Shown here in pieces: positions 53,823-55,559 of a stretch of 64,000 nt of DNA. The position numbers and the translations under genes were made by a program. How positions within the stretch are numbered: the first letter of the stretch is position 1; the number at the start of each line of letters is the position of its first letter. The notes under the pieces were generated by a model, which was not told the DNA's origin, made no database searches, and saw only the letters and a program-made list of their open reading frames with translations. The DNA lies in NCBI RefSeq assembly GCF_030013205.1, contig NZ_CP122648.1. One strand, given 5' to 3'. Source of the stretch: Escherichia coli. Lineage in GTDB: Bacteria > Pseudomonadota > Gammaproteobacteria > Enterobacterales > Enterobacteriaceae.

Positions 53823-54927
53823 GGTTATCAGGAACGATATCTTTCATTTTGCTTCTACAGAGAACGTGCCCACGGGGTTCTATCGGTTATGCAAACAAAA
53901 ACCAGTGAACCCTTTATTCTTTTTGCCCAATTTGCTAGTAGTTGCTGAGGGCAATAATGATGCCATTCCACCATGCTTTGATTTCTCTGTTATTAGCACT
54001 GAATTATTTGAGTCAATTGAAGATGGAGATATTGGGATAATCAACAATGGCAATATGATACGCGTTATTCTGTCACGCAAAGCCAACCATAATACTGTCT
54101 TAGTTACGGAACGCTGCAATAACTTGTGTCTGTTTTGTTCGCAGCCACCAAAGAAAATAAATGATGACTGGCTACTTACCCAATCAGCTCTTGCTATAGC
54201 TTCATTTGGCTTGAACGGAGTTGTTGGGGTCAGCGGTGGTGAACCTTTGCTATATGGGGATGACTTCCTTCACTTCATTGATTTTATCATCGAGAATTCA
54301 CCAGATACTGCTTTACATGTTTTAACAAACGGACGCAAATTTGCTGATACCAACTTTACACAGGAAATGGCAAAGCGAAGCAAAAAGATCAAAATCACCT
54401 TTGGTATCCCGCTCTACTCATCAAGACCACTTGTGCATGATCATCTGGTAGGGAGTGATGGCGCATTTAATGAAACGGTTAAAGGGTTAATCAATGCAGG
54501 AAACTTGGGGATTAATATCGAACTTAGAGTTATTCCTACACTGGCTAACTATACCGAATTGGATGATATCGTAGAATTCGCTGGCCGTGTGTTCTCCAAC
54601 ATCAATCAGATTTCCCTTATGGGGTTGGAGCCTATCGGTTGGGCACGAAAAAACTGGTCCACCATCTTCATTGATCACAGTAGTTATAGTGAGAAAATAA
54701 TCTCTGCCATAGACGCTGCATACAGGTCAGGCATACCTCTGACAATTTTTAATTATCCTTTGTGTTATCTTCCTGAAAGGGCTAGGGAGCTTGCTGTTCA
54801 GTCGATCTCTGATTGGAAAAATTACTATCCAAAAGAATGTGATGAATGTACTCAGAAGCCTTCCTGTGCTGGCTATTTCAGTTCCTCAAAAGGCCGTTTT
54901 CATCAATCACCGAGACCAATTTTATGA
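53815..54927 (+). CDS. hxsC: second radical SAM enzyme, HxsC-like maturase
   Basis: 370-aa ORF; CX3CX2C (CNNLCLFC) at 54115-54138; C-terminal Cys-rich segment; start overlaps hxsB stop. Confidence 0.8.
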   Translation: MSEVIRNDIFHFASTENVPTGFYRLCKQKPVNPLFFLPNLLVVAEGNNDAIPPCFDFSVISTELFESIEDGDIGIINNGNMIRVILSRKANHNTVLVTERCNNLCLFCSQPPKKINDDWLLTQSALAIASFGLNGVVGVSGGEPLLYGDDFLHFIDFIIENSPDTALHVLTNGRKFADTNFTQEMAKRSKKIKITFGIPLYSSRPLVHDHLVGSDGAFNETVKGLINAGNLGINIELRVIPTLANYTELDDIVEFAGRVFSNINQISLMGLEPIGWARKNWSTIFIDHSSYSEKIISAIDAAYRSGIPLTIFNYPLCYLPERARELAVQSISDWKNYYPKECDECTQKPSCAGYFSSSKGRFHQSPRPIL

Positions 54928-55559
54928 AAAAGTTTAATTTTGCTGCTCTACTTCCGGGATTTTTGGCTCTCAACAATTCTGTATGGGCAAGCGATTCATC
55001 TACAGGAGCGAGTGATTTACCTGGTATGACTCTTAATGAGCATGATTTAGTGATAGCTCCACTTAACACGGAAGTCCCATTTTATATCGCAGGGCATCGA
55101 AGCCATAGTTCTCATAGGAGCCATAGCTCTCATAGATCCTCATCAGGTGGTGGATACTATGGTGGAAGTACCCCCTATTATCCAAAAACATACAGCTCAC
55201 CAAGTTCATCTGGTTCTTCAAGTTCAGGTGCAAGTTCCTCATCGTCCTCTTCCTCGGTGCGTGCACTTCGTTCTAACGATAATAATAGAACCACTAACAC
55301 GAGTTCTGTTGGAACTTCAGAGGTTAACCGTACGAGTAATGGGCTTGCTTCTGATGCAGAGAAACGTAAGCGATTGATTATGCGAGTTCAGTTCGCATTG
55401 CTGGACAGGGGATTTTATAACGGAAATATTGACGGCATAATGGGGCCATCCACAAGGCTGTCTGTGAAAAATTACCGCATTGCGAATGGATTACCGATTC
55501 CTGCAACTGAAACACTCGACGCACAATTGTTAAATTCTTTGAATATATTAGCTCGCTAA
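54924..55559 (+). CDS. hxsA: secreted His-Xaa-Ser repeat protein with Ser-rich linker and C-terminal peptidoglycan-binding-type domain (HxsA-like)
   Basis: ATG at 54924 overlaps hxsC stop (ATGA); signal peptide MKKFNFAALLPGFLALNNSVWA; HRSHSSHRSHSSHRS at 55095-55139; C-terminal ..LLDRGFYNGNIDGIMGPST.. Confidence 0.8.
   Translation: MKKFNFAALLPGFLALNNSVWASDSSTGASDLPGMTLNEHDLVIAPLNTEVPFYIAGHRSHSSHRSHSSHRSSSGGGYYGGSTPYYPKTYSSPSSSGSSSSGASSSSSSSSVRALRSNDNNRTTNTSSVGTSEVNRTSNGLASDAEKRKRLIMRVQFALLDRGFYNGNIDGIMGPSTRLSVKNYRIANGLPIPATETLDAQLLNSLNILAR

Follow-up and report, generated by a model that had tools for sequence, protein, structure and literature searches.

The window, which is the whole stretch of 64,000 nucleotides of Escherichia coli DNA that was analyzed, contains four contiguous genes arranged as hxsD-hxsB-hxsC-hxsA with overlapping starts and stops at positions 52162-55559. 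The operon lies in a cassette that is cargo of a P2-like prophage and is located between ogr and gene D (Table 1). All four gene products exceeded the NCBIfam equivalog cut-offs. RefSeq annotated hxsDBCA in the 100% identical E. coli genome NZ_CP062203.1, where the last gene is named hxsA (WP_001419375.1). The HXS system is already known, being published and routinely annotated, and the window holds a well-annotated allele of it. An earlier note on this DNA had described the protein encoded by the last gene; the named and annotated system, its role in anti-phage defense and its position as prophage cargo had been missed there.

Table 1. Positions of the genes, protein segments and neighboring elements at the hxs locus of the window
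Feature	Position	Strand	Basis or remark
ogr/Delta-like zinc-finger late-gene activator, left neighbor	51649..51909	-	PGAP; weak NF007241 (NCBIfam)
hxs cassette, 3,776 nt, in the ogr-gpD spacer of a P2-like prophage	51951..55726		
hxsD, 90 aa, small accessory protein	52162..52434	+	TIGR03976, 90.6 bits (cut-off 50)
hxsB, 462 aa, radical SAM/SPASM-type maturase	52434..53822	+	TIGR03978, 558 bits (cut-off 370)
hxsC, 370 aa, second radical SAM maturase	53815..54927	+	TIGR03977, 398 bits (cut-off 268)
hxsA, HxsA His-Xaa-Ser repeat effector	54924..55559	+	211 aa; TIGR03979 match
Predicted signal peptide, residues 1-22, MKKFNFAALLPGFLALNNSVWA	54924..54989	+	rule-based reading
Pro-region/leader-like segment, residues 23-57, ends APLN...YIAG (conserved)	54990..55094	+	
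Five His-Xaa-Ser triplets, residues 58-72, HRSHSSHRSHSSHRS	55095..55139	+	
Disordered linker, residues 73-143	55140..55352	+	AlphaFold pLDDT < 50
C-terminal PG_binding_1-type domain, residues ~144-211	55353..55556	+	
3' end of prophage gene D, right neighbor, cut by IS	55724..55869	-	97.9% identical to FORC_029 gpD
ISCro1 (IS66 family: tnpA, tnpB, transposase) in gpD	55870..58567	-	PGAP

The hxs operon and the maturation proteins

The four genes are closely joined: the start of hxsB overlaps the stop of hxsD (ATAATG), hxsC and hxsB share 8 nt, and the ATG of hxsA shares the sequence ATGA with the TGA of hxsC. The start codon of hxsD was used as in PGAP. A longer open reading frame beginning at position 54846 was rejected as the hxsA gene because the hxsA ATG overlaps the hxsC TGA; PGAP places the start at the same codon, and the protein read from there fits the HxsA model over its full length. 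This fit to the TIGR03979 equivalog scored 159.5 bits, compared to a cut-off of 121.65, and comprised residues 4-209 of the protein and positions 4-189 of the 190 positions of the model. An exact-sequence cluster look-up of HxsA gave no entry. In a promoter scan, promoter-like sites upstream of hxsD were no more common than expected by chance, and a terminator scan downstream of hxsA found none.

The small HxsD protein contains the motifs LYW (residues 20-22) and LLNDYSLRE (residues 56-64). Its AlphaFold model, with a pLDDT of 94.7, displayed a beta-alpha-beta-beta-long helix fold without a structural match in the PDB at E ≤ 0.001; the top matches, at E ≥ 0.02, were de novo beta-sheet heterodimers and KH/Pcc1-like folds, with no RiPP recognition element among them. 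Searches of Pfam-A and of the PDB sequences with HxsD were likewise empty. HxsD was rejected as a PqqD-like RiPP recognition element (RRE) because its topology is not that of the RRE winged helix, in which three strands are followed by three helices.

In HxsB, the cysteines are arranged as CX3CX2C at C94/C98/C101 with an auxiliary motif C399xxC402, and in HxsC as C101/C105/C108 and C342xxC345. Like SPASM RiPP maturases, HxsB has a radical-SAM core and, at the C terminus, a Cys motif for an auxiliary cluster, and it matched PapB, CbpB, SCIFF/ScfB and the anaerobic sulfatase maturase with E values of 1e-19 to 1e-8, but its scores were far below the cut-offs of the SPASM RiPP maturase families. 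The likeness extends to the substrate, since HxsA has an invariant, leader-like N-terminal region as RiPP precursors do. Unlike such precursors, however, HxsA is a secreted protein of 211 amino acids with a folded domain and no Cys, and HXS differs from RiPP systems by its need for two paired radical-SAM enzymes and by the topology of HxsD, which is not PqqD-like.

PADLOC-DB 2023 contains no model for HXS. PADLOC reported weak matches of HxsB and HxsC to the pVip models (23-29 bits, E values of 1e-7 to 1e-5), and an assignment of both proteins as prokaryotic viperins was rejected: the matches were limited to the radical-SAM core at residues ~92-229, and the NCBIfam viperin model scored 21 bits compared to its cut-off of 180. 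The pVips and HXS both use the radical-SAM fold in anti-phage defense, but pVips act on no protein; their products, made in the cytoplasm, are nucleotides that terminate chains.

Architecture and conservation of HxsA

The earlier note had proposed that the protein is secreted. A Lys-Lys n-region, a hydrophobic core with a 9-residue Kyte-Doolittle hydropathy of ~2 and V-W-A in front of the predicted cut site agree with a signal peptide by rule-based reading, and in the tested E. coli homologue, which is periplasmic, SignalP 6 assigns residues 1-22 to a signal peptide (PMC13128918). The first 100 residues were the same in the E. coli alleles that were compared. HxsA has no lipobox because it has no Cys. 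The segment between the signal peptide and the array, residues 23-57, was unchanged among the alleles from E. coli even though 12-14 of its codons differ synonymously, and A56 was invariant in 47 homologues.

Translation yielded exactly the five tandem His-Xaa-Ser triplets that had been described, HRSHSSHRSHSSHRS, preceded by AG and followed by SSGG, with the last triplet inside SHRSS at residues 69-73. This arrangement, tandem HxS units with HRS at both ends and SSGG next to them, is that of the family. When the repeat number was compared across 108 full-length homologues, as the earlier note had suggested, the result was conservation and not loss of the repeats: 104 of the 108 had four to six units, namely five in 68, six in 24 and four in 12. 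The conserved middle residue of the triplets was Arg or Ser, and SSGG followed the array in 77 of these 108 proteins. Three or more tandem HxS units appeared in only 6 of 200,000 composition-preserving shuffles of HxsA.

Comparison of E. coli alleles, which encode HxsD proteins with 62-81% identity, revealed 31-40 synonymous versus 0-1 non-synonymous differences in hxsA codons 1-100, and this ratio indicates that the region is under strong purifying selection. Within the 15 residues of the array, 7-9 changes were synonymous and none was non-synonymous. The array had also been described as repetitive at the codon level. This was only partly correct. Tandem Repeats Finder detected an 18-nt period with 1.9 copies, and other E. 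coli alleles spell the 15 residues with 7-9 different synonymous codons. A DNA-level tandem repeat as source of the array was ruled out, since 7-9 of the 15 codons change while the peptide remains the same; the repetition is a feature of the protein and not of the DNA because the alleles keep the residues by means of different synonymous codons.

The linker following the array is composed of SSGGG-Tyr/Pro (residues 73-90), a Ser-rich part (91-111) and an Asn/Thr/Ser-rich part (112-143). It includes the Gly/Tyr segment GGGYYGGSTPYYPKTY at residues 75-90 and the Ser-rich tract SSPSSSGSSSSGASSSSSSSS at residues 91-111, both in the order noticed before. The non-synonymous changes between the E. 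coli alleles of hxsA clustered in the linker, and distant homologues have Pro-rich linkers in place of the Ser-rich tract, which is a variable linker as judged by these alignments. The mature protein is basic, with a computed pI of 9.7-10.3 and an array charge of ~+3 at pH 7 and ~+7 at pH 5.5.

For the C terminus, the resemblance to a peptidoglycan-binding module seen earlier was confirmed by sequence profile and by the predicted fold. The Pfam PG_binding_1 model matched residues 154-191 with E = 2.9e-4, and it matched 40 of 47 aligned homologues at E ≤ 0.001, with 1.3e-18 as the best value. A profile of HxsA homologues searched against the PDB found the N-terminal domain of SleB with E = 4.9e-7. 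In the AlphaFold model, the folded three-helix domain had a pLDDT of ~90-98 across residues ~150-210, and Foldseek superimposed the model onto 6tci, the SleB N-terminal domain, with an rmsd of 1.2 Å over 56 columns, a target-normalized TM-score of 0.70 and a probability of 1.00.

The hxs cassette in prophages, islands and plasmids

The match of the window to a P2-like prophage without hxs genes, found in FORC_029, ended at position 51950 and restarted at 55727, and in FORC_029 just 10 nt are located between these two border points. The GC content of the cassette is 37-45%, versus 50-56% in the flanks. Homology to ogr was present in 1,230 E. coli genomes, and the ogr-hxsD junction in 43. The gpA-gpQ region is a known hotspot of P2-like phages, and the ogr-gpD site of the cassette differs from it. 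PGAP labels the remnant of gene D a hypothetical protein. The ISCro1 element downstream is not part of the hxs system and is absent from strains 03_3013 and B2; the borders of its insertion overlap by 9 nt, in keeping with a duplicated target site. The host prophage is decayed, with gpD split by ISCro1 and a truncated tape-measure gene fused to an IS3-type fragment. Expression of the hxs genes is not guaranteed because the host prophage is degraded and carries these IS insertions.

The cassette was intact at 99.5% identity or more in 45 complete genomes. Other E. coli alleles of hxs reside in ssrA-integrated mobilizable islands beside ABC-three-component systems, and 356 plasmids, of which 351 are from Klebsiella, carry hxs genes as well. 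The cassette on the Klebsiella plasmids was 90.5% identical, and most of the carriers were typed as conjugative (IncFIB/IncFII in one that was inspected). A DNA search of sequenced phages for hxs gave no match. At the protein level, the search of sequenced phages gave two matches: a Leptospira phage/plasmid-prophage with an annotated hxsC of 35% identity and, as the last one, an unannotated metagenomic contig. The P2-like carrier of hxs is known as a prophage only, because the sequenced phages gave no such match. The context, a low-GC insert in a P2-like prophage here and islands and plasmids for other alleles, is typical of a defense cassette.

Assignment to the HXS defense system and its meaning

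The HXS system of E. coli strain MEM (CP012378) is a broad anti-phage defense that restricts 110 out of 113 phages of diverse taxonomy (Li et al., Nat Commun 2026;17:3910, PMC13128918). The phenotype depends on all four genes, which are in the order D-B-C-A in 99.6% of HXS systems, and the tested system worked from its native promoter; 77% of the hxs operons are chromosomal and not in prophages (PMC13128918). Processing of HxsA in this homologue requires HxsB, HxsC and HxsD, and maturation includes N-terminal processing and a change of +8 Da mapped to the last repeat, SHRSS (PMC13128918). The signal peptide, residues 23-47 and the peptidoglycan-binding region are all needed, the processed protein is periplasmic, and peptidoglycan-anchored HxsA delays entry of the phage DNA (PMC13128918). 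The modification was not reconstituted in vitro, its state in the mutants could not be checked, and DNA binding by HxsA was observed only in vitro (PMC13128918).

The genes in the window agree with those of MEM in number and order. In both HxsA proteins, residues 1-22 are the predicted signal peptide, SHRSS closes an array of five HxS units and a peptidoglycan-binding domain makes up the C terminus, and the cysteines mutated in HxsB (C98, C101, C399, C402) and in HxsC (C105, C108, C342, C345) of MEM have equal numbers in the window. In contrast, HxsA of MEM is numbered to 214 residues and that of the window to 211, and the numbering of HxsD is offset by +2. The two are probably different alleles; among E. 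coli hxs alleles, HxsD diverges by as much as 38% and HxsB by as much as 25%. The published precursor ion of m/z 714.5 (5+) was assigned to residues 48-78 with +8 Da (PMC13128918). The same peptide of the HxsA in the window has a computed m/z of 678.71 and not 714.5, a value that fits only residues 48-79, and these only if a further +16 Da joins the +8 Da or if the change is one of +24 Da. This mismatch could reflect differences in allele, numbering or reporting.

With a probability of about 90%, the open reading frame is hxsA and encodes the effector of an HXS anti-phage operon whose four genes are intact. The analysis presented here supplies the identity and architecture of HxsA, the evidence that the array is conserved and the setting in a mobile element; for defense, the need for four genes, the location in the periplasm, the change of +8 Da and the delay in DNA entry, the source is the literature on a related E. 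coli allele. Taken together, HxsA would be synthesized with a Sec-type signal peptide and recognized in the cytoplasm at its invariant N-terminal region by HxsB and HxsC, the latter with HxsD bound to it. These proteins would modify the HxS array, with the reported +8 Da on SHRSS, the last repeat, and would also enable the N-terminal cleavage. The idea of the earlier note that the His and Ser residues are substrates of the radical-SAM enzymes is borne out by the NCBIfam matches to HxsDBCA and by the published maturation of HxsA (PMC13128918). Modification may occur before export. Processed HxsA, largely disordered and basic, would reach the periplasm and be tethered to the cell wall by the PG_binding_1 domain, and the HxS array would delay or block the incoming phage genomes, with adsorption unaffected and without abortive cell death. 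The DNA itself may be the immediate target, and the allele in the window is presumably expressed and active.

Evaluation of the last two points needs to consider other explanations. The genes may be intact but unexpressed or unprotective in this strain, making the cassette a silent passenger of a dead prophage, for which the split gpD, the truncated tape-measure gene with its IS3-type fusion and the lack of a convincing promoter or terminator in the scans would speak. Four full-length reading frames with every functional motif, the identity of at least 99.5% in 45 complete genomes, the strong purifying selection indicated by the codon comparison and the function of the published system from its native promoter (PMC13128918) argue otherwise, so that a silent cassette is improbable. 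As to the mechanism, matured, wall-anchored HxsA may not capture DNA but obstruct the trans-envelope ejection channel of the phage, in its assembly or its function, or the passage of the channel through the peptidoglycan. In that case the binding of DNA in vitro would be a side effect of a basic, disordered protein, as any polycationic disordered protein with a pI of ~10 shifts DNA in a gel. HxsA is tethered to the very peptidoglycan that the ejectosome must cross, phage DNA normally traverses the periplasm inside a protein channel, T7 escape mutations are in the ejectosome channel proteins gp15 and gp16, and the authors name channel blockade among the alternatives to direct DNA capture (PMC13128918). 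On the other hand, a pull-down with periplasmic HxsA showed no interaction with gp15 or gp16, and the restriction of 110 of 113 diverse phages is at odds with the recognition of one protein (PMC13128918). Obstruction of the channel is somewhat unlikely.

Two further readings concern the function of HxsA as a whole. The His-Xaa-Ser families were defined in silico by Haft and Basu (J Bacteriol 2011, as cited in ref. 22 of PMC13128918), on the basis of co-occurrence and before a function was known; the proteins of the window score above the cut-offs of TIGR03976-TIGR03979, are named accordingly by PGAP and do not differ from these families in structure. The term "target peptide" in that definition might suggest that HxsA is the precursor of a secreted, radical-SAM-modified natural product, bacteriocin-like or used in signaling, and the invariant leader-like N-terminal region as well as the proximity of HxsB, outside its own family, to the SPASM peptide maturases PapB and CbpB would fit. 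A 211-aa protein that is retained in the periplasm by a folded wall-binding domain does not fit, nor does a cassette in which transporter, protease and immunity genes are absent, and the published defense phenotype needs the peptidoglycan-binding domain (PMC13128918); this reading is largely refuted and has hardly any probability left. Similarly, as in the second option of the earlier note, a metal-binding array, five His residues at a fixed three-residue spacing could chelate Ni, Zn or Cu and form a periplasmic site for metal buffering or a metallochaperone. Here, genes for metal transport or its regulation are absent nearby, the conserved middle residue of the triplets, Arg or Ser, is not a ligand, the cassette is spread by prophages, islands and plasmids in the way that defense genes are, and the published phenotype is phage resistance (PMC13128918), which makes metal binding as the function extremely unlikely.

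HXS, as an envelope-based defense, may be compared with the superinfection exclusion proteins Imm and Sp of phage T4. In each case the block to DNA entry lies in the envelope, at a stage when the phage has adsorbed but its genome is not yet in the cytoplasm; Imm and Sp are phage-encoded, and the hxs genes of the window are likewise carried by a prophage. There is no relationship in sequence or fold: Imm and Sp, membrane proteins that carry no modification, have a narrow range, whereas HXS needs radical-SAM maturation and has a broad range (110 of 113 phages, PMC13128918).

HXS was reported as the first defense that acts on the entry of phage genomes in the periplasm, and HxsA as the first protein effector of immunity to be modified by radical-SAM enzymes. 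The analysis of the window adds that the whole N-terminal 100 residues of HxsA, and not the repeats alone, are under near-absolute constraint at the protein level, and that a prophage carries this allele as cargo, inserted at a defined point. The P2-like prophage as carrier differs from the chromosomal, non-prophage sites stressed in the study of MEM (PMC13128918) and is a qualification to the published view that prophages do not typically carry HXS. The prophage site, the ssrA-integrated islands and the Klebsiella plasmids would fit a reading of HXS as chiefly a weapon that mobile elements use, instead of a chromosomal system of the host, although this generalization is doubtful. If it were true, the periplasmic block of DNA could be a broad superinfection or entry-exclusion module for the carrier element, and HXS might affect transduction, phage satellites and even conjugative entry.

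Identity of the operon and layout of HxsA

The operon consists of four overlapping genes and ends with hxsA; the genes were assigned by scoring their products with NCBIfam equivalog models against the curated cut-offs (see the table). In E. coli K_EC180 (NZ_CP062203.1), which is 100% identical to the window, the PGAP labels are also hxsD, hxsB, hxsC, and hxsA. The HXS families were defined in 2011 by co-occurrence (Haft and Basu, as cited in PMC13128918, ref. 22), and an E. coli hxsDBCA operon was cloned by Li et al. (Nat Commun 2026;17:3910; PMC13128918). The NCBIfam and PGAP identity together with this published work indicates that the earlier note, made from the sequence alone, was a correct sighting of an already known and annotated system.

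The catalytic CX3CX2C and the C-terminal CxxC motifs are present in the radical-SAM proteins of the operon, with Cys 98, 101, 399, and 402 of HxsB and Cys 105, 108, 342, and 345 of HxsC in the numbering of the residues mutated in PMC13128918. The motifs LYW and LLNDYxLRE of HxsD and SHRSS of HxsA were all found. The HxsD model (pLDDT 94.7) is composed of a strand, a helix, two strands, and a long helix, and had no significant structural neighbor in the PDB; the topology of this confident model is not that of a PqqD-like recognition element. Promoter and terminator scans around the operon gave no informative signal.

HxsA does not contain a single Cys. Residues 1-22, MKKFNFAALLPGFLALNNSVWA, predicted to be a classical signal sequence of the Sec type, are located N-terminal to the array and are followed by a 35-residue segment with YIAG at its C-terminal end, the five tandem HxS triplets with the translation HRSHSSHRSHSSHRS, just as the earlier note had read them, SSGGGYYGGSTPYYPKTY, a Ser-rich tract of 21 residues (91-111), an Asn/Thr/Ser-rich stretch, and the C-terminal domain. 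The signal peptide, Ser-rich tract, and C-terminal module noticed earlier were all located in this translation. The likeness of the C terminus to a peptidoglycan-binding module was upheld by Pfam (PG_binding_1, E=2.9e-4, reaching E<=0.001 in 40 of the 47 homologues aligned), by a homologue profile, which retrieved from the PDB the peptidoglycan-binding domains of SleB, SltB3, L,D-transpeptidases, and phage endolysins, and by an AlphaFold model, in which order was confined to residues about 144-211 (pLDDT about 90-98), with a 1.2 A superposition of this part on the N-terminal domain of SleB.

Features of the window and of related loci
Feature	Position	Strand	Remarks
hxsD	52162-52434	+	TIGR03976, 90.6 (cut-off 50)
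hxsB	52434-53822	+	TIGR03978, 558 (cut-off 370)
hxsC	53815-54927	+	TIGR03977, 398 (cut-off 268)
hxsA	54924-55559	+	TIGR03979, 159.5 (cut-off 121.65); ATG to stop, 211 residues
HxsA codons 1-100	54924-55223	+	
HxS array	55095-55139	+	
Low-GC cassette	51951-55726		3,776 nt; borders 51950/51951 and 55726/55727
ISCro1	55870-58567	-	IS66 family (tnpA, tnpB, transposase); splits prophage gene D
Fusion ORF	59311-62247	+	IS3-family orfA-like N terminus in frame with N-terminally truncated P2-type tape-measure protein
Acetyltransferase gene	62919-63482	+	hexapeptide repeat, low GC (38-43%), between gpU and tail-fibre assembly gene; annotated "transferase," same-position gene in strain 03_3013 "serine acetyltransferase"
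Hok/Gef-family toxin gene	51318-51458	-	at prophage end, adjoining ogr
STnc540 sRNA	50954-51110	+	Rfam, 41.9 bits (gathering score 38); overlaps ihfA 3' end
espL1	41418-43316	-	type III effector gene, intact; frameshifted in 03_3013 and B2
IS1397	1517-2865	+	after topB
hxpB	36367-37036	-	frameshifted pseudogene
DUF6119/TIGR04141 gene	L003 11530-13173, L004 10447-12054, L005 11510-13322		other E. coli hxs loci; frameshifted in RM12579
hxs cassette of L009	7108-10505		K. pneumoniae plasmid NZ_CP031801.1 (IncFIB/IncFII), near repA

Conservation of the array and the N-terminal region

At least three tandem HxS units appeared in just 6 of 200,000 shuffles of HxsA, so composition alone does not account for the array. 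Loss of the repeats with retention of the operon, which the earlier note would have counted against its reading, was looked for in 108 full-length homologues: 104 possessed four (12), five (68), or six (24) units, and the remaining four, with fewer than four units, were close relatives of the window HxsA with a point substitution or deletion inside the array, three of them from assembly contigs. The first and last units are nearly always HRS, flanked by AG and SSGG.

Identity among four E. coli alleles was 62-81% for HxsD, 75-94% for HxsB, and 80-94% for HxsC. The first 100 codons of hxsA showed 31-40 synonymous but only 0-1 non-synonymous differences between these alleles, and the 15 array codons showed 7-9 and 0, respectively; replacements were tolerated in the linker and the peptidoglycan-binding domain. 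Synonymous-only changes in the array indicate selection for the repetition in the protein, to which the 18-nt periodicity of the DNA is incidental. As judged from these alignments, the signal peptide and pro-region are constrained equally with the array, and this fits a possible function as recognition element for the maturases. HxsA of O55:H7 RM12579 carries a 7-residue deletion (SDSSTGA) directly after the signal peptide. The Ser-rich tract is limited to the enterobacterial clade, with Pro-rich linkers in its place elsewhere, which agrees with the dispensability of residues 114-139 of the published HxsA (PMC13128918).

The prophage cassette and the distribution of hxs

The operon resides in a low-GC cassette between ogr and gene D of a P2-like prophage adjoining ihfA, and a related hxs-less prophage has just 10 nt there. 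The cargo site differs from the characterized defence hotspot of P2-like phages, which is gpA-gpQ (PMC9122126). The prophage is degraded in the window strain: gene D is interrupted by ISCro1, and the tape-measure gene has been truncated and joined to an IS3-type fragment. The tail genes FI, FII, and E of related prophages are also lacking. The flanks of ISCro1 (55724-55869 and 58568-59264) overlap by 9 nt, as a target-site duplication would. Both 03_3013 and B2 carry this hxs cassette in a fuller prophage and have no ISCro1. The acetyltransferase gene is probably further prophage cargo, possibly with a role in surface modification.

In complete E. coli genomes, hxs was found in 151 of 5,426, in all 151 on the chromosome, and the ogr-hxsD junction in 43 of 5,426. 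The three other E. coli alleles inspected were all in ssrA-integrated islands with integrase and relaxase, two of them adjoined by ABC-three-component systems. All three have a "sporadically distributed" DUF6119/TIGR04141 gene 18-68 nt 3' of hxsA on the same strand. This gene, absent from the window, may have an accessory role or may act in defence on its own. A cassette 90.5% identical to that of the window along its entire length is carried by 356 PLSDB plasmids, 351 of them recorded from Klebsiella and 296 typed conjugative; one, L009, was inspected. Plasmid carriage is not discussed in PMC13128918.

Mode of action of HxsA

The cloned operon gave protection from 110 out of 113 coliphages, with neither abortive infection nor an effect on adsorption; all four genes were needed, as were the signal peptide, the peptidoglycan-binding region, and each of the five repeats of HxsA (PMC13128918). 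An HxsC-HxsD complex was formed, and cleavage and periplasmic accumulation of HxsA depended on HxsB, HxsC, and HxsD (PMC13128918). That the triplets are radical-SAM substrates, as the earlier note proposed, is the published view, with a +8 Da change mapped to SHRSS in a related allele (PMC13128918); the alternative of a metal-binding array found no support. For residues 48-78 with +8 Da, PMC13128918 gives a 5+ precursor of m/z 714.5, a value at odds with the window sequence, from which 678.71 is obtained. To reach m/z 714.5, window residues 48-79 need either +8 plus +16 Da or +24 Da; the mismatch could stem from the allele, the numbering, or the reporting.

HxsA would be matured by HxsB, HxsC, and HxsD, exported, anchored to the wall, and block the phage at genome entry, which with T7 took about 30-50 min instead of about 8-12 min (PMC13128918). 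The last step may be electrostatic capture of phage DNA; periplasmic HxsA bound DNA in vitro (PMC13128918). Instead of DNA, the target might be the phage channel or its passage through peptidoglycan. Phage DNA is normally inside the channel, the T7 escape mutations affect the channel proteins (gp15 and gp16; PMC13128918), and DNA binding in vitro is to be expected of any protein as basic as HxsA (pI about 10), so some weight goes to this rather unlikely alternative. Next to DNA capture as the candidate last step, the identity of the system and its general mode of action, a wall-anchored block of genome entry, rest on solid genetics with the related allele.
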